A DNA stretch of 64,000 bases from an uncultured Bacteroides sp. GTDB taxonomy: Bacteria > Bacteroidota > Bacteroidia > Bacteroidales > JACABE01. The translations under genes were made by a program, and so were the position numbers. The notes below the pieces were generated by a model. The model ran no database searches and was not told where the DNA came from. It was given only the letters and a program-made list of their open reading frames with translations. The DNA lies in the NCBI GenBank assembly GCA_964634005.1, contig CAZWKQ010000005.1:40655-104654 (forward strand), read 5' to 3'. Positions 13,828 through 20,792 of this stretch are shown one piece after another (the stretch's first letter is position 1; each line of letters opens with the position of its first letter).

Positions 13828-15444
13828 TTAAACTGATATTTTTTTCAGATTTTCAATCACTCTTATATACTCTTCACTTTTATCCAGATTGCTTTTTAAA
13901 GCATTTTCTATTGTTATAATCTCTTTTTTGATATTTATTAGAGTCTCATCTTTTAAATTATCTATGGTTTTATTAATTATTTCAGTATAGTCAGAAGTTA
14001 TTCTGTGAATGTTCTTATCAACTTCATCGGGTATTTGCTTTAAAAAATATTTTTTGAAAAGCTTTTTGAAAATTATCATAGGAAATATAAACCATAGAAG
14101 ATCCAAATGATTATCAAATGCCCTATAAATTGAAATATCAGGTCTTTTTATCCTTTTAAACTCAATATTCCATTCATTAGAAGATATGCTTATACCTAAA
14201 GTGGTTTTGATATTGTTACTTAATCGTTCTCTAAATGACCTTGAAAAAAAATTAAAATGTTTGTTAATATCTTCAAGAACACTTTCGATCTTATTGCTTT
14301 CAATATCAGCTATCAATGAAATTTTTTCAGATAAAGTATATTTTAACCAAAATTCATATTTTCTTGTCAATTTGTAAAGATTGCCATTCCAGCTATCATA
14401 AACTGTAATGAACTGATTTGAAACTTCCTCAATAATTTCATTTTTATGAGCATTTAAGATATTATAAATTTTATCTCTCATATTATTCTTTATATCTGTC
14501 GAGAATAATACGATTTCATGGTTAATAAATGTAAAATTTGTTTTCTCATCAAATATCTTTGACGCAATTATTTTTTTTTCTTCTTCGGTTTTCTGTGCAG
14601 ATTTTAATGAAATTTCAAAAAAAGCGTTACAATATCTTACTAATAGATTTAATTTATTTTTTATAATCAACTGATACTCTGATTCAAATTTTTGAATTAA
14701 TTTATCAAGCACTTCAACTTCGAAGATGTTTTTGTATCTATCAGTTTCTTTTATAGTTGAATAATTATAAACTTCAATTTCAATATTAAATTTGCGTTTC
14801 AAAGTAGATTTAACAAAATCGTTAATTTCTGAGATTTCCTTTAAATTAAACAAATCAACTTTTGTAATCAAACAAATAACCTTATAAGAATTTGCTATTA
14901 GTTCTTCAAAAAGCGTTATATCAGTCTCCGAAAGTGGCCGTTCGGCACTCACGCATACTATGGCAATGTTTGTTTCAATAAAAGTGCTTTCTGTTGTTTC
15001 GTTATTATTTTTATGAACACTTCCTAATCCCGGAGTATCGGTAAAACATAAGCCTTTGAATTTTGCTGTTTCAGGGAGTTCAATTAACGCTATATCAACA
15101 TTTTTTGAATTGCCGGGATTTTTGTTTTCGGTTATATATTCTTCTAATTCATTTTCGGAAATTTCTTTTTTTCTTTTATCATTAAAATATATTGTTATTC
15201 TTTGATTTTCGCCGTAAATTATTTTAGTAATTATGGATGTTGCAGGTAAAACCGAAGTAGGCAAAATTTTTTTATTAACTAAACTGTTAATAAATGAGCT
15301 TTTACCGGCTTTAAATTGTCCAAATACAGCAATATCGATATATTTGTTCTTTGATGATAGTTCTATTGAATTTATAAGCTTTTCAACAGAGTTGATTTCA
15401 TATTCTTCACAAATTGATTTTAGTTCATTTAGTATTTTTTCCAT
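13828..15444 (-). CDS. Dynamin-family (bacterial dynamin-like) GTPase.
   Basis: Motifs seen are the P-loop FGQFKAGKSSFINSL, G2-region LPATS, G3 DTPGLGS and G4 TKVD. A long helical C-terminal half follows. Confidence 0.75.
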   Translation of the reverse strand: MEKILNELKSICEEYEINSVEKLINSIELSSKNKYIDIAVFGQFKAGKSSFINSLVNKKILPTSVLPATSIITKIIYGENQRITIYFNDKRKKEISENELEEYITENKNPGNSKNVDIALIELPETAKFKGLCFTDTPGLGSVHKNNNETTESTFIETNIAIVCVSAERPLSETDITLFEELIANSYKVICLITKVDLFNLKEISEINDFVKSTLKRKFNIEIEVYNYSTIKETDRYKNIFEVEVLDKLIQKFESEYQLIIKNKLNLLVRYCNAFFEISLKSAQKTEEEKKIIASKIFDEKTNFTFINHEIVLFSTDIKNNMRDKIYNILNAHKNEIIEEVSNQFITVYDSWNGNLYKLTRKYEFWLKYTLSEKISLIADIESNKIESVLEDINKHFNFFSRSFRERLSNNIKTTLGISISSNEWNIEFKRIKRPDISIYRAFDNHLDLLWFIFPMIIFKKLFKKYFLKQIPDEVDKNIHRITSDYTEIINKTIDNLKDETLINIKKEIITIENALKSNLDKSEEYIRVIENLKKISV

Positions 15445-15847
15445 AACTTAATAATTCAACTAAATTAAGCAAATTAACAATATCATTATCATATTCGTCT
15501 ATAAAATCTACCTCTAATTTTCCATAGCCCTTCATTCTTTCTGATTTGGAATCCATCAACATTTCCCAAATTTTACTTTTCTTAGAATTAATAAATTGAT
15601 AAAAAGAAATTTTTACCGGCGATAAATTATATTTCTGTTTTAATAAAAGAATTTCTTTTTTGATTTGATTTAAAACTTTTATAATCTCTTCAATTTCAGC
15701 TTTATCTAAATCTTTTTCGATTTGAAACAAATATCTGTCTTTTTCCTGTGTAAGTTCATTATAAATATCTTCAACATAATCCTCAATTAAAAATAATACA
15801 GAAGTAAGTGACCTTTTATAATTTTCAGGGAGTTCTTTATAATTCAT
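15425..15847 (-). CDS. Hypothetical small helical/coiled-coil protein, translationally coupled to the dynamin-like GTPase.
   Basis: 140-aa ORF rich in E/K/L. Its 3' end overlaps the GTPase start by 20 nt. I recognise no family motif. Confidence 0.55.
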   Translation of the reverse strand: MNYKELPENYKRSLTSVLFLIEDYVEDIYNELTQEKDRYLFQIEKDLDKAEIEEIIKVLNQIKKEILLLKQKYNLSPVKISFYQFINSKKSKIWEMLMDSKSERMKGYGKLEVDFIDEYDNDIVNLLNLVELLSYGKNTK

Positions 15848-15851
15848 TTTT

Positions 15852-16325
15852 TTAATTTCTGAGAGTAGCTTTTATTCGTAATGGATTATTAATTAATTCA
15901 AGAGCATCAATTATACTAAAACAAACTATATCGGCAGAATTTATTGCATTTACGGAGGCTCCTTCTTTTTGTATAACAGAAATGCCTATTATCGAATTTT
16001 TCAACATCAAACTATCATTAAATCCGTTGCCTATGCATATAGTTTTGCTCGAATTTATAGAGTTCAGGAAATTTAATTTAGCCTCCGATTGATTTGTTGA
16101 TTCTAATATTTTTAAATTACAAGGTATATTTTTTAATTGGGCTTTAACTAAACCGAAAGTATCTGCAGTAATGATATAAATGTTTAATTTTTTAGATATT
16201 TCAATTAACATTTCTTCTACTTTCGGTATTAGTACCCCATCAATAGCAAGAGTACCATTATAATCAAGCATCAGATTTTCAATTTCTATAGGCTTTTTAT
16301 ATTGTGGCAAGTCAATTGTAATCAT
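15852..16325 (-). CDS. HAD-superfamily protein resembling soluble P-type-ATPase domains (COG4087-like).
   Basis: LDYNGTLA (a DxxGT-type motif I, compare DKTGT) and GNGFNDSLML (compare GDGxND). I chose the start at 16325 (MITIDL...) to avoid overlapping the CYTH gene. The ORF track extends to 16445. Confidence 0.7.
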   Translation of the reverse strand: MITIDLPQYKKPIEIENLMLDYNGTLAIDGVLIPKVEEMLIEISKKLNIYIITADTFGLVKAQLKNIPCNLKILESTNQSEAKLNFLNSINSSKTICIGNGFNDSLMLKNSIIGISVIQKEGASVNAINSADIVCFSIIDALELINNPLRIKATLRN

Positions 16326-16341
16326 ATAATAAATATTAAGA

Positions 16342-16806
16342 CTATTCCCAGTAAATATACGGATTTTGCGCAAGATAAGAATTATAGTATCTCGAATCAT
16401 ACGAAACTTCTTTTTCCACCCAGTCAGGGATTTCAATTTTTTCATTTTCAGAATTAAGTTCTATTTCGGCAATAATCAATCCGGCGTTTTCTCCAAGAAA
16501 TTCATCTATTTCCCATTTTTTCCCCGAGTATTCAACAAAGTATCTGTTTTTTTCTATTTGAACTTCAGTAAATTTTTCGATTAATTCTTTTGCAATTTTA
16601 TTATCAATAACAAATTCATATTCTTCGCGAGATAATTTTTGTGTTTTTCCTTTTATGGTTAAATAGCCTTTTTCTCCCATTATTCTTGCTCTGACTGACA
16701 TTTTATCATTAACAAACAAATAACCTTGCAATATATACTGACAACTCTCTTTGGTCAATAACTTCCATTTTTGCTTATTAACCAAAAATTTTCTTTCAAT
16801 TTCCAT
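16342..16806 (-). CDS. CYTH-domain (triphosphate tunnel metalloenzyme) protein.
   Basis: The N-terminus MEIERKFLV carries the ExExK signature. Size is 154 aa, with the C-terminal motifs EIDEF...AEIEL. Confidence 0.8.
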   Translation of the reverse strand: MEIERKFLVNKQKWKLLTKESCQYILQGYLFVNDKMSVRARIMGEKGYLTIKGKTQKLSREEYEFVIDNKIAKELIEKFTEVQIEKNRYFVEYSGKKWEIDEFLGENAGLIIAEIELNSENEKIEIPDWVEKEVSYDSRYYNSYLAQNPYIYWE

Positions 16807-16807
16807 A

Positions 16808-17233
16808 TTATTTTCTAATAATCAATACATTACATTTAGCGTTTTCACTTACTTTATCGGCAACTTGACCCAAACTATTACCCCATAAATTTGAATGACC
16901 TCTACAGCCAATTACCAACAAATCAATGTGGTTATTTTGGGCAAATTCAACAATAAGTTTTGCAGGATTGCCTTGTAAATATACAAAATCTATTTCAATA
17001 TTTTCTTGTTTGGAAATGTTTTGCAGTTCTTTATTTATTTTTGCGGCGTAAATTAAAATCGATTTATTCTCTTCTTCAATTTCTGCAACAGTTTCATGAT
17101 AATAAGACCTATATCCGCCAATCCAAATGGCAGTCAATTTTGAATTAAATGCTTTTGTTATACTTATTGCATGATTTAAAGCATTTTTTGAACCTGCTGA
17201 ACCATCATAAGCTATTAAAATATTGTTGTACAT
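16808..17233 (-). CDS. Universal stress protein (UspA family).
   Basis: ILIAYDGS..S..AL..A ... DLLVIGCRGHS ... GSV..KV pattern. It is preceded by AAAGGAGGTTATT-ATG. Confidence 0.85.
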   Translation of the reverse strand: MYNNILIAYDGSAGSKNALNHAISITKAFNSKLTAIWIGGYRSYYHETVAEIEEENKSILIYAAKINKELQNISKQENIEIDFVYLQGNPAKLIVEFAQNNHIDLLVIGCRGHSNLWGNSLGQVADKVSENAKCNVLIIRK

Positions 17234-17250
17234 AATAACCTCCTTTGATA

Positions 17251-18441
17251 TTATTTATTTTTACTTTTTTTAATTCTTCTTAATCTCCCCCATGCAAGCA
17301 TTGTTAATAATGACGGTTGATAAAACTTTTGAGCAATTAGAGTAGGTACAATAGCACTCAAAATTACCACAGTTACAAGTATTGTATATTGTTCCTGATT
17401 TATTATGTTATTATTAAGTCCAAAAAGAGCCGAAATAGTTCCAAATGTAAGACCTGTAGCCATAAGTAATGTAGTGTACTTTGCTTCTCTTTTTCTCATT
17501 TTCTGCATTCTTGCCAAAGGATATACTCCAATAATTTTTGTAATTATTTTAACAATTAATAAAATCAGTATTATTCCCGATGAAATGACAATGATTTTTA
17601 ATGAAACATACAAACCTGCTTTTAAAAAATAAAAAGGAGTGAAAATACTAAAAGCAATTGTTCGCATTCTATTGACTAAAGTTTTGTCGGTAACAAACAC
17701 ACCTGCCACAACCAATCCAATAAGGTAAGCAGGTAAAACAGCCTCGCTCTTGGCAGTTGTAGCCAAACCACCCATTAAAAACAGTATAAGTAAAATAAAT
17801 TTAACTTCCGGTTGACTGACTCTTGACGTACCTAATTGACCTATTATAAATTTTGTCCATTTAGGCATAAACCAAAGAACTATGGTCAAAAGAACAATAA
17901 AAATTAACATCCAGATATTAAAATCGGCAAACAACACTCCTAAAGCCAAAACTGTACCGAAATCAGTAATAAAGCATGCAGCTAAGATCATTTTACCCAA
18001 GTTTGTATCACTTAATCCTCCTTCAATCATAACTGCGTAAACAACAGCTACAGAAGTCGTTGATAGAGCGATACCTGCAATTTGAGCTTGGCGTAAGTCC
18101 CATCCTAAAACATATTGAGTAAATAACCAAACACTTATAAATGGGACTAAAAATGACAAAACGCCTATTAAAGTACTCGATAAAAGATTTTCTTTCAAAG
18201 ACTTAGGATCAATTTCAGCACCTGCAAGAAAAGTCAATACCCCACTGCCCAACATAGCTAAAAAATCTATCCACTGTGTAGTTTGGTGGATCCCTAAAAA
18301 ATTCCCGGCAATAACTCCTACAAGTATTTCAATTAATGCAACAGATATTCCTAATCTAATCGAAATTAAACTTGCGATAAAAGCCAGCCCCATCCATATA
18401 GCGGCGACCAGCCAGATATTTTGTAACAAACCATCGAACAT
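17251..18441 (-). CDS. Cation:proton antiporter (CPA2/Kef-type sodium/hydrogen exchanger family).
   Basis: 396 aa with about 11-12 TM segments. The pattern is typical of Na_H_Exchanger proteins (GLAFIASLISIRLGISVALIEILVGVIAGNFLG). Confidence 0.8.
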   Translation of the reverse strand: MFDGLLQNIWLVAAIWMGLAFIASLISIRLGISVALIEILVGVIAGNFLGIHQTTQWIDFLAMLGSGVLTFLAGAEIDPKSLKENLLSSTLIGVLSFLVPFISVWLFTQYVLGWDLRQAQIAGIALSTTSVAVVYAVMIEGGLSDTNLGKMILAACFITDFGTVLALGVLFADFNIWMLIFIVLLTIVLWFMPKWTKFIIGQLGTSRVSQPEVKFILLILFLMGGLATTAKSEAVLPAYLIGLVVAGVFVTDKTLVNRMRTIAFSIFTPFYFLKAGLYVSLKIIVISSGIILILLIVKIITKIIGVYPLARMQKMRKREAKYTTLLMATGLTFGTISALFGLNNNIINQEQYTILVTVVILSAIVPTLIAQKFYQPSLLTMLAWGRLRRIKKSKNK

Positions 18442-18477
18442 AATAACTCCTTTCTCATTTTAATTAATTAGAGATTA

Positions 18478-18524
18478 GTAGGAGTTATCAGCGAAAATTG
18501 CATTTTTGGCGAACTCCATCGCCA
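18478..18524 (-). promoter_or_regulatory. Fluoride riboswitch aptamer (crcB RNA motif).
   Basis: The minus-strand RNA is UGGCGAUGGAGUUCGCCAAAAAUGCAAUUUUCGCUGAUAACUCCUAC. It has a GGCG/CGCC helix, a pseudoknot between loop GGAGUU and 3' AACUCC, an A-rich joiner and a CCUAC tail. Caveat: the internal P3 helix is weak (2 bp plus a mismatch). Confidence 0.85.
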
Positions 18525-18535
18525 TTTTTTATAAA

Positions 18536-18901
18536 TTAATCATACCATTGTTTTTTCTTCCCTGTATGATGTAATATTATTTCAATTTCTTCTATTGTAA
18601 TCAGATAGCCACTTTTAACTTTCTCAAAGAATGGTTTGATATTTTCAACAAAACTTTTGATTTTTTCTTTTTCATCAATAATTTCAACGACAATAGGAAT
18701 TTTTTCGGTAAATTCCCAAAATGTTGCTGATTTTATTATTCCACTCGAACCGTATCCCATTATACCTTTTAAAACAGTGGCTCCCGATATTCCGTATCTT
18801 CTTGCTGCATGCACTATAGCATCAGATAATGGAGTATGTTTAAATTTATCGGTATTACTGATGTATATCCTCAACAAACAAACTTTAGAGTTTCTATCCA
18901 T
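18536..18901 (-). CDS. DUF190-family protein (PII-like small protein commonly linked to crcB).
   Basis: LLRIYISNTDKFKHTPLSDAIVHAARRYGISGATVLKGIMGYG resembles DUF190/UPF0166. It lies immediately downstream of crcB. Confidence 0.75.
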   Translation of the reverse strand: MDRNSKVCLLRIYISNTDKFKHTPLSDAIVHAARRYGISGATVLKGIMGYGSSGIIKSATFWEFTEKIPIVVEIIDEKEKIKSFVENIKPFFEKVKSGYLITIEEIEIILHHTGKKKQWYD

Positions 18902-18903
18902 GA

Positions 18904-19281
18904 TTAAATAATTTTAGTTAATAAAACTCCAAGATAAGTCGATAAAATTCCTAAAAAAACACTTAAAGTGGAATAAATTGTAAAAAAGAAAAAGTTACCA
19001 TCCTTTATTAAAGCAAGATTTTCGTTAGCAAAAGTAGAAAAAGTCGTAAACCCGCCACAAAACCCTACAGCCAAAAGCAGCTTGAGTTCTGCACTTAATA
19101 ATGTTCCTTTTTGGGAGATACCAAATATCAATCCGATTATAAAACAACCTACTATGTTAACTACAAATGTTGGATATGGAAATGTTGAAATTATTGACCC
19201 TTGTACATATTTTGAAAGTAAATATCTTGAAATTCCGCCAAAAAAACTACCAAATCCGACTATCAAAATATTCTTAATCAT
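18904..19281 (-). CDS. crcB: Fluoride ion channel CrcB/Fluc.
   Basis: 125 aa with 4 TM segments. Motifs GGISRYLL and GFCGGFTTFSTF are present. Confidence 0.9.
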   Translation of the reverse strand: MIKNILIVGFGSFFGGISRYLLSKYVQGSIISTFPYPTFVVNIVGCFIIGLIFGISQKGTLLSAELKLLLAVGFCGGFTTFSTFANENLALIKDGNFFFFTIYSTLSVFLGILSTYLGVLLTKII

Positions 19282-19305
19282 TTATATATAAGGTTATTCT
19301 ATTGA

Positions 19306-19313
19306 CAAATTTA
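19306..19313 (-). promoter_or_regulatory. -7 promoter box (TAnnTTTG) for crcB.
   Basis: The minus strand reads TAAATTTG 24 nt upstream of the crcB ATG. Confidence 0.4.
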
Positions 19314-19353
19314 GTATAAAATAACGTGAATTGGCAGTTTTAATTGTATTTTG

Positions 19354-19401
19354 ACCCAAATTTTTAATTAGGAACTAAGTGAACTAATTAAATTAATTGG
19401 G
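19354..19401. repeat. Copy A of a conserved 48-nt palindromic intergenic element.
   Basis: acccaaatttttAattaggaacTAagtgaactaatTaaattaattGgg matches 20843..20890 at 43/48 positions. Confidence 0.7.
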
Positions 19402-19417
19402 ATTAATGTAAAAAAAG

Positions 19418-19492
19418 TGGGCTGTACGGGACTCGAACCTGTGACTTCCACCCTGTCAAGGTGACACTCTAAACCAACTGAGTTAACAGCCC
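19418..19492 (-). tRNA. tRNA-Val (anticodon GAC).
   Basis: I folded it by hand as a cloverleaf. The acceptor stem is GGGCUGU/ACAGCCC, the D stem ACUC/GAGU, the anticodon loop UUGACAG and the T-loop UUCGAGU. There is one A-C mismatch in the T stem. CCA is not encoded, and a T-run follows. Confidence 0.85.
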
Positions 19493-19517
19493 AATTAAAA
19501 CACAAAATTAATAAAAA

Positions 19518-20792
19518 TTATTGAACATTTATCAAACTTTTAAAATCTGAACCACTTGGATTTTGAAAAATTTGCAAATCAAACATTGGAACTACCGCTA
19601 ATATATGATCAAAAATATCGGAAATAACATCTTCGTATTTTGCCCATTCAGTAACTTTGCTAAAAACATATATTTCAACAGGTAAACCTCTTTCGGTTGG
19701 AGGCAATTGTCGAACAAGTAAAGTATGCTCTTTTGAAATTTTATCATTATCGGCTAAATAATTCTGAATATATTTTCTGAAAACTCCGAGATTAGTTTGT
19801 CTTCTTCCATTTATCAACTGACTGTTGTCAATAATATGAGTTTTGTTATATTCTTCCAGTTCTTTTTGTTTTTCAATAATATACTCTTTTATCAATTGAA
19901 ATTTCTTAAATCTTTCCAGCATTTCGTCATTACAAAACTTAACACTGTTCATATTTAATATTAACGACCTTTTTATCCTTCTAACGCCTGATTCTTCCAT
20001 TCCCCTCCAATTCTGAAATGCATCGGAAATTAAAGAATAAGTAGGAACTGTTGTTATCGTTTTATCGAAATTTTCAATTTTTACTGTTGTAAGATTTATA
20101 TCCTTTACGGTACCGTCGGCACCAAACTTATTAACAGTAATCCAATCGCCGGGACGAAGCATATCATTGCTCGAAAGCTGAATACTGGCTACAAACCCTA
20201 ATAATGTATCCTTGAAAACCAACATTAATACTGCCGATAATGCACCTAAACCACCAAGCAAGTATAATGGTGATTGCCCTACAAGTATTGATATTATTAT
20301 AATTGCAGCTATGAGGTAAATTATTATTTTTACAATTTGGATATAACCCTTAATTGGTTTATATTTTGATATTTCAAAATCGTTGTATATTTCAATTATT
20401 GCGTTGAAAAAAGCATCAATTACAACAACTACAATAATTACCATATAAATCTTTAATGCCCCTTGAATGAGATTTACCCAAAATTCGTATTTAACATTTG
20501 TCAAAATTTCGGGCATTAATGAATGAATAAGCATTGCTGGAGCTAAATATGCCAATCTGTGAAATACTCTCTTTTCGACTAAAATATCATCCCATGTAGT
20601 TTCAGTGCGTTTTGATATCTCTTTTAGAACTTTAACTATCAGTTTTCGGGCTATTATGAAAACTATATAACTTAAAATAAAAATCCCAACAACGACAATT
20701 ATGCTTTTTACAAAAAAAGCATAATCCTCTGAAACTCCCATCTTTATAAGCCACGATATTATTTTTGTTCCAAAAGTCTCTTCAATTTTCAT
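19518..20792 (-). CDS. Mechanosensitive ion channel family protein (MscS-like).
   Basis: TM helices are followed by LRPGDWITVNKFGADGTVKDINLTTVKIENFDKTITTVP, an MscS beta-domain signature. Confidence 0.85.
   Translation of the reverse strand: MKIEETFGTKIISWLIKMGVSEDYAFFVKSIIVVVGIFILSYIVFIIARKLIVKVLKEISKRTETTWDDILVEKRVFHRLAYLAPAMLIHSLMPEILTNVKYEFWVNLIQGALKIYMVIIVVVVIDAFFNAIIEIYNDFEISKYKPIKGYIQIVKIIIYLIAAIIIISILVGQSPLYLLGGLGALSAVLMLVFKDTLLGFVASIQLSSNDMLRPGDWITVNKFGADGTVKDINLTTVKIENFDKTITTVPTYSLISDAFQNWRGMEESGVRRIKRSLILNMNSVKFCNDEMLERFKKFQLIKEYIIEKQKELEEYNKTHIIDNSQLINGRRQTNLGVFRKYIQNYLADNDKISKEHTLLVRQLPPTERGLPVEIYVFSKVTEWAKYEDVISDIFDHILAVVPMFDLQIFQNPSGSDFKSLINVQ

Follow-up and report, generated by a model that had tools for sequence, protein, structure and literature searches.

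Why should a fluoride riboswitch lie inside a fluoride-resistance operon instead of at its head, and which step could it control from there? The question is raised by a minus-strand locus in the 64-kb stretch of Bacteroidales DNA analysed here (the window, meaning the whole stretch), in which crcB and a DUF190 gene are followed by a structured RNA element and then by the genes of a NapA-like cation:proton antiporter and a universal stress protein (Usp). An earlier note on this DNA had described the element as a fluoride aptamer in an unusual place that turns on translation of the antiporter by releasing a sequestered Shine-Dalgarno (SD) sequence. That observation is confirmed, and most of its interpretation holds. 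Between DUF190 and the antiporter, a gap of 94 nt contains a fluoride riboswitch which, judged from its sequence and that of its relatives, quite likely works as a translational ON switch, with the aptamer most likely carried on a read-through mRNA. What changes is the role of the SD sequence, the length of the competing helix and the weight given to the placement.

A fluoride aptamer behind DUF190

Read directly from the window, the minus-strand RNA from 18524 to 18478 is UGGCGAUGGAGUUCGCCAAAAAUGCAAUUUUCGCUGAUAACUCCUAC, and the string, coordinates and complementarities that the earlier note had given for it are all correct. The Rfam model of the fluoride riboswitch (RF01734) matched the minus strand at 18472-18532 over model positions 1-64 of 64, and its score of 53.4 bits (E 5.6e-12) lies above the gathering score of 34 bits, so that the low score named in the earlier note as a refutation did not occur. 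This match is the sole fluoride aptamer in the window, for which the Rfam scan gave one tRNA besides. A covariance model of our own (R1), built from 23 Rfam-validated aptamers, scored the same element at 62.3 bits. P1 consists of the pairs G18523-C18508, G18522-C18509, C18521-G18510 and G18520-C18511 and encloses a GAUGG.GUU loop, and GGAGUU (18517-18512) forms an H-type pseudoknot with AACUCC (18486-18481) in which six of six positions pair.

The Rfam model does not encode the pseudoknot, which was assessed on our own alignment; for the test of pair conservation 124 aptamers of related loci were aligned. P1 and the pseudoknot showed standard pairs in 99.4% of the alignment cells (123 aptamers). 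P1 was paired in 100% of these, with compensatory changes in three of its four pairs, and the pseudoknot helix in 99.1%, with compensatory changes in four of six pairs, including a GGUAU/AUACC variant in the relatives L087 and L100. Changes on both sides were found in 7 of the 10 pairs of the two helices, a number reached by none of 500 shuffles, and the window aptamer satisfies all 10 pairs. The two aptamers with the doubly compensated pseudoknot (L087 2875-2937 and L100 235-297) pass the Rfam threshold with 41.2 and 49.9 bits.

The element at 18472-18532 is a canonical crcB-motif fluoride riboswitch, real and well-formed, as covariation and score both support, and it would be expected to bind fluoride. 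It shares with the motif the full-length match, P1, the pseudoknot from loop to 3' strand, the GAUGG...CUGAU.ACUCCUAC core and a neighbourhood of fluoride-resistance genes; crcB, DUF190, the NapA-like antiporter and Usp, all genes of fluoride toxicity, adjoin it. It departs from the norm of the family in a minimal P3 and in its position, which is not a 5' leader but the gap between two co-directional genes. For the crcB-motif riboswitch, PMC11139923 cites Baker et al. 2012, and the structure of the Thermotoga petrophila fluoride aptamer was reportedly given by Ren et al. 2012. The DUF190 stop codon (18538-18536) ends 11 nt before U18524, which opens P1, just as had been noted, and the Rfam match starts 3 nt past this stop. 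A terminator-like site called on the plus strand at 18507-18524 was rejected, being merely P1 and the A-rich leader read on the opposite strand, in a place where no plus-strand gene ends.

Two exclusive pairings of one aptamer strand

The 3' strand of the pseudoknot has a second possible partner. AUAACUCC (18488..18481) is perfectly complementary to GGAGUUAU (18450..18443), and a GGAG sits 5 nt upstream of the antiporter ATG at 18441, both of which had been recognised before. The competing helix is longer than the 8 bp first described, with 11 contiguous pairs, one of them G-U, between UGAUAACUCCU at 18490-18480 and AGGAGUUAUUA at 18451-18441; it takes in the A of the AUG and has a duplex energy of -14.5 kcal/mol. 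The two pairings of this strand are mutually exclusive. In the minimum free energy (MFE) fold of 18535-18425, P1 is retained and the UGAUAACUCCU/AGGAGUUAUUA helix is formed (z = -3.5 vs shuffles). Over AGGAG, the mean probability of being unpaired rises from 0.014 in the apo model to 0.49 once both pseudoknot strands are blocked, and the MFE goes from -26.6 to -11.5 kcal/mol. Of the 1959 ATGs in the window, only 4 can form 11 bp or more in a row with the switching strand.

A survey of about 155 related loci, 80 from genomes and 75 from metagenomes, placed this pairing in a wider context. A same-strand fluoride aptamer was found upstream of the antiporter in 74 of the 80 genome loci and in most of the metagenome loci, and in close-coupled relatives the gap from aptamer to start codon is usually 11-40 nt, which leaves no room for a terminator of its own. 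Of 67 unique close-coupled aptamers, 70% can form a helix of 7 bp or more between their 3' strand and their own start region, versus 12% of 124 non-cognate start regions from the same loci (Mann-Whitney p = 2.7e-17). In L087 and L100, loci of 30% GC whose antiporters are 84% and 80% identical to that of the window, the pseudoknot is the GGUAU/AUACC variant and not GGAGU/ACUCC, and the partner strand before the AUG tracks the variant (UAGUAGGUA and GGGUAU, neither of them SD-like). The sister lineage L162, whose antiporter is 98% identical and whose arrangement is that of the window, differs at 7 of 116 nt and leaves P1, the pseudoknot and the switch helix untouched; all changes fall in the leader or the hairpin loop, except for C18493->U, which makes the A/C mismatch of P3 an A-U pair. 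Because the alternative pairing is conserved and specific to cognate partners, a translational ON switch is the best reading of the element.

The OFF helix has a loop of 29 nt and an AU-rich stem, lacks an uninterrupted U-tract and overlaps the start codon with its 3' strand. A terminator scan of 16500-19700 found no terminator-like site on the minus strand, and the claim that no hairpin with a U-tract follows the aptamer thereby stands. These same features make it quite unlikely that control is mainly transcriptional, by intrinsic or Rho-dependent termination downstream of the aptamer, although the sequence 3' of the helix is U-rich (UUAUUAUGUU), the hairpin of Verrucomicrobiota relatives is followed by a U-run, and an antiporter reading frame left untranslated would be open to Rho. 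In those relatives (L039, L040, L048, L052-L054, L059, L069, L070 and L072) the OFF hairpin (GACUCCUUCC...GGAAGGAGUU) precedes a U6-7 run that leads straight into the AUG, so that the hairpin resembles an intrinsic terminator and an SD-sequestering stem at once. The OFF hairpin of the Bacillus cereus crcB riboswitch presumably uses the same competing strands (ACUCCUAC... with a downstream ...GUAGGAGU), a sequence that a full-text literature search did not confirm. The B. cereus hairpin acts as an intrinsic terminator with a U-tract, whereas that of the window has a long loop, no U-tract and, as its 3' strand, the initiation region of the regulated gene. The B. cereus element is a transcriptional ON switch (PMC11754884).

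As a translational ON switch, the window element would work on one mRNA (crcB-DUF190-aptamer-antiporter-Usp and onward) read through from the crcB promoter. Without fluoride, the switching strand would pair with the initiation region and bury it, together with the first base of the AUG, in the 11-bp helix. With fluoride, the pseudoknot with bound Mg2+/F- would capture the strand, leaving the initiation region open and the antiporter translated, and expression of the downstream genes would probably rise as well, by coupling or by relief of polarity. The choice between the pairings would probably be kinetic, made as the 26-nt spacer (18477-18452) is transcribed. In a host poor in SD sequences, what is regulated would probably be whether the start region can be physically reached. 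The outcome would be a crcB channel free of riboswitch control and an antiporter/stress module made only upon fluoride accumulation.

Several points weigh against this account. P3 (18501-18499 with 18493-18491 in the Rfam alignment) is minimal, having two Watson-Crick pairs (G18501-C18491 and C18500-G18492) and an A18499/C18493 mismatch, a weakness against which the earlier note had rightly cautioned; a P3 of 3 bp is equally short in L096, L148 and L156, which nonetheless score above the gathering cut-off. The bound state was mimicked crudely, by blocking the two pseudoknot strands, as the folding tools used cannot handle a pseudoknot. In the model the OFF helix is some 15 kcal/mol more stable than the blocked state, and a purely thermodynamic switch would stick OFF. 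Since the helix is predicted to be so much more stable than the 6-bp pseudoknot, we infer a kinetic choice during synthesis of the 26-nt spacer, which is an assumption. An AGGAG at the ideal spacing of 5 nt, together with a near-identical initiation region at Usp, may mean that SD recognition matters after all. Finally, a box with two mismatches to the promoter consensus, TAATTTAT, lies precisely where relatives have their promoter, so a weak internal promoter is possible.

A weak P3 and an atypical position within the operon would also be expected of a decaying, non-functional relic of operon rearrangement. Such a relic is extremely improbable here in view of the high Rfam score, the intact pairs of P1 and the pseudoknot, the presence of the 11-bp switch helix and a sister lineage that conserves every paired position while its loops and leader vary.

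Probable control of start-site access in a Bacteroidales host

The host belongs to the Bacteroidales: homologues of its threonyl-tRNA synthetase with 78-86% identity carry the labels Bacteroidales, Bacteroidota and Lentimicrobium, and the window encodes a protein with a sorting domain of the type IX secretion system (T9SS). Ribosomes of the Bacteroidia are reported to be blind to the SD (PMC7797042, PMC9976891, PMC13000453). SD-like motifs are found at 4 of 41 gene starts in the window, and the two strong ones are those of the antiporter and Usp. The antiporter gene of Bacteroidota relatives lacks an SD altogether where it is operon-internal and does not adjoin an aptamer. Read most simply, the GGAG is present through forced complementarity to the conserved ACUCC of the aptamer. 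Given an SD-poor host and the non-SD partner strands of L087 and L100, occlusion of the A-rich start region and the AUG would more likely be the regulated step than pairing of the SD with the anti-SD. Indirectly, the rarity of SD-like motifs, the Bacteroidales host, the reported SD-blindness of Bacteroidia ribosomes and the partner strands of the relatives speak against the GGAG as a functional SD of this host. Of the proposal that fluoride relieves SD sequestration, the ON switch stands, its alternative pairing being conserved and cognate-specific, but a strict SD role is not supported.

That strict role, in which pairing of AGGAG with the anti-SD of 16S rRNA is itself the regulated step and fluoride frees a functional SD, we regard as unlikely. 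It can call on a perfect AGGAG 5 nt from the AUG, on the same design with AGGAGU in SD-using phyla such as Verrucomicrobiota, on the near-identical GGAGG initiation region of Usp and on Bacteroidia genes with functional SDs, for example rpsU (PMC9976891, PMC13000453). It is opposed by the rarity of SD-like motifs in the window, by the reported failure of Bacteroidia ribosomes to recognise an SD (PMC7797042), by Bacteroidota antiporters that lack one away from the aptamer and by partner strands that follow the variant pseudoknot without being SD-like.

The rpsU gene of Flavobacterium johnsoniae offers a likeness, a strong SD-like element in an otherwise SD-less lineage; its SD is read by bS21-free ribosomes for autoregulation (PMC9976891, PMC13000453), whereas the SD-like sequence of the window is best explained by complementarity to the aptamer. 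By analogy, a freed AGGAG could work as an SD, in which case the antiporter and Usp would be translated preferentially by a bS21-free sub-population of ribosomes; this seems very improbable. If it were true, both the riboswitch and ribosome heterogeneity would gate the induction by fluoride, and the operon-internal switch would divide one mRNA between a constitutive part, for the exporter, and an inducible part, for the stress response.

The initiation regions of the antiporter (18453-18436) and Usp (17246-17228) on the minus strand are near-identical, AAAGGAG-UUAUUAUGU and AAAGGAGGUUAUUAUGU, with the common pattern AAAGGAG(G)UUAUUAUG, in a genome otherwise without SDs, and both regions are conserved in L162 (1990-2008). 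The switching strand could pair with the Usp region as well (-11.3 kcal/mol). Within the antiporter 3' end and after it, no local anti-SD that would sequester the Usp start in a coupling hairpin was found. The GGAG(G) box of Usp is kept in the SD-poor relatives L001, L003, L004, L005 and L096 and not in L087, L089, L097 and L100, and in SD-poor Bacteroidota-like relatives the antiporter upstream of Usp has no such box. Recent horizontal transfer was considered as a source of the SD-like boxes and rejected: there is no GC anomaly over 13-23 kb, and Bacteroidota antiporters lack an SD. Such an origin is not supported for the antiporter and may still apply to Usp.

Transcript, operon layout and the place of the switch

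As a stand-alone predictor of promoters, the TAnnTTTG -7 box was rejected, as its 127 occurrences in the AT-rich window correspond to chance frequency (116.5+-10.1 expected), and only positional comparison was used. Of 10 Bacteroidota-like relatives, 8 carry a perfect TAnnTTTG immediately before the aptamer, so that box and aptamer form a conserved unit. The box ends about 6-8 nt before P1 in L094, L105, L146, L128, L001 and L096 and about 17 nt before it in L087 and L100, a fixed distance which implies that these transcripts would start almost exactly at the aptamer. The counterpart in the window, TAATTTAT at 18538-18531, overlaps the DUF190 stop codon and carries its two mismatches in the TTTG part. 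The only perfect minus-strand boxes nearby are those at 19313-19306, before crcB, and 19036-19029, inside crcB; between 19029 and 18441 no exact TAnnTTTG occurs on the minus strand.

As the stretch from DUF190 to the aptamer holds no terminator, read-through from upstream is the favoured reading, and we think it reasonably probable that the aptamer is transcribed in this way from the crcB promoter. The alternative is that the weak box in the 3' end of DUF190 starts an antiporter-Usp mRNA of its own, which would make the aptamer an ordinary element of a 5' untranslated region. It draws on the distance of the degenerate box from P1, which equals that of the perfect boxes of several relatives, and on the promoter-aptamer-antiporter units of the closest relatives L087 and L096. 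We hold it possible but rather doubtful, as the mismatches fall in the conserved TTTG, the box of the sister lineage L162 is even more degenerate, the minus strand holds no exact box from 19029 to 18441 and, with no terminator after DUF190, read-through transcripts would exist anyway. The single transcript from the crcB box proposed in the earlier note thus remains plausible, supported by the missing terminator and the degenerate local box, but the TAnnTTTG motif by itself is weak evidence for it.

Table 1 Features of the fluoride locus and its surroundings (window coordinates)
Feature	Position	Strand	Basis or remark
Fluoride riboswitch aptamer	18472..18532	-	RF01734, own model R1 and pair conservation
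Switching strand UGAUAACUCCU	18480..18490	-	Alternative partners: aptamer loop (pseudoknot) or antiporter initiation region
Translation-initiation-region strand AGGAGUUAUUA (SD-like AGGAG, spacer, A of AUG)	18441..18451	-	MFE fold, unpaired probabilities
TAAATTTG, perfect TAnnTTTG -7 box, 25 nt before crcB ATG	19306..19313	-	Candidate promoter of whole unit
MscS-like channel	19518-20792	-	Upstream neighbour of tRNA-Val
tRNA-Val(GAC), then T7 run	19417..19492	-	ARAGORN; Rfam tRNA 58.8 bits
crcB (Fluc fluoride channel)	18904..19281	-	Pfam CRCB 99.8 bits
DUF190 (P-II-like), 2 nt past crcB stop	18536..18901	-	Pfam DUF190 103.3 bits; PDB relatives 2dcl, 1o51
NapA-like CPA2 cation:proton antiporter	17251..18441	-	Pfam Na_H_Exchanger 137.2 bits; aligns full-length with Thermus NapA (4bwz, 5bz2, 5bz3)
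Universal stress protein (Usp), 17 nt past antiporter stop	16808..17233	-	Pfam Usp 91.1 bits
CYTH protein	16342-16806	-	Probable downstream member
HAD-like protein, start uncertain	about 15852-16400	-	Probable downstream member
orf140 (140 aa)	15425-15847	-	Probable downstream member
Dynamin-family GTPase	13828-15444	-	Probable downstream member

The tRNA-Val gene and its T7 run mark the upstream boundary of the crcB transcription unit (Table 1). The genes of the cluster are separated by a few nucleotides or overlap, apart from the 94-nt gap that holds the aptamer and its platform. From their tight co-directional spacing and from the relatives, the genes at 13828..16806 are probable members of the same unit as the antiporter. 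A permissive Rfam scan (E<=10) found no second fluoride aptamer in 18400-19700, and the spacer of 136 nt between the tRNA and crcB is as free of aptamer-like sequence as had been stated; crcB has no aptamer upstream. Six independent assemblies, NCBI GCA_030154545.1 among them, show the same arrangement, which is therefore not an assembly artefact.

The dominant layout among the surveyed loci is aptamer-crcB-DUF190-antiporter-Usp. Shorter layouts consist of the aptamer followed by antiporter-Usp or by DUF190-antiporter-Usp, and longer ones in Bacteroidota and Ignavibacteria add enolase and a dynamin-family GTPase. The window CrcB, DUF190, Usp, CYTH and HAD-like proteins have their best matches in canonical low-GC loci (e.g. 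L094/L152 and L105), from which it follows that the window cluster derives from a canonical operon, with the aptamer at the junction of DUF190 and antiporter and not at the head. The canonical operons of related Bacteroidota-like genomes (e.g. L094/L152, L105, L146 and L001) have the same genes in the same order, with CYTH and HAD in some cases, and provide the best protein matches for all six window genes. They differ in that the aptamer stands at the head, just past a perfect TAnnTTTG, with about 12 nt between DUF190 and antiporter, where the window has a head without an aptamer and 94 nt with one.

The exact layout of the window was found only in its own lineage (the window and L162). In L005, L006 and L065 aptamers also follow crcB-DUF190, but the intervening genes or spacing differ. 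More generally, 11 of 122 aptamers lie within 30 nt of a co-directional upstream open reading frame and 24 of 122 within 60 nt, by crude calls of these frames; several of the intercistronic aptamers lie just past a Usp stop codon. Intercistronic placement is a recurring minority pattern. A literature search for precedents of intercistronic riboswitches found nothing specific. Na+/H+ antiporters rank second among the gene classes associated with fluoride riboswitches, and only about 15% of Fluc/crcB genes are under riboswitch control (PMC11139923). The window conforms to this known and common association without essential difference, having a NapA-like CPA2 antiporter directly behind the aptamer and then Usp. 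Neither a crcB without such regulation nor an antiporter with it is out of the ordinary. The placement that had been called unusual is lineage-specific as an operon-internal position, but neither antiporter control nor a position behind a co-directional frame is rare. The layout is a lineage-specific rearrangement of the canonical operon and no new kind of system.

Clusters with two to four fluoride aptamers were seen at L141 (2725-2906), L143 (180-659), L010, L014, L015, L129 and L133, among them pairs in tandem ahead of the antiporter and pairs that diverge on the two strands. The antiporter subfamily keeps 65-84% identity across more than 10 phyla, including Bacteroidota, Ignavibacteria, Verrucomicrobiota, Bacillota, Spirochaetota and Acidobacteriota, versus only 30-67% for CrcB, DUF190 and Usp of the same operons. 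This conservation suggests strong constraint and frequent horizontal transfer of an uncharacterised transporter that may be dedicated to fluoride. A dynamin-like GTPase with a small partner reading frame also recurs in fluoride clusters: it stands directly behind the aptamer in L002 (269-2029) and L005 (2317-4020), within a riboswitch-headed operon in L001 (2368-4002) and at the tail of the cluster in the window. A role of the dynamin-like protein in fluoride stress was not found in the accessible literature.

The practical value of these findings is modest. The NapA-like antiporter, Usp and the bacterial dynamin-like GTPase emerge as recurrent and uncharacterised members of the fluoride regulon. 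One conserved aptamer strand appears to be reused across hosts, for terminators, for SD-sequestering hairpins and, in SD-blind Bacteroidia, for plain occlusion of the start site, and the apparent SD of the window is best read as a by-product of complementarity. The locus is a natural example of a fluoride riboswitch between cistrons, and its position, on what is probably a single mRNA, would uncouple a constitutive fluoride channel from a fluoride-induced antiporter/stress module.

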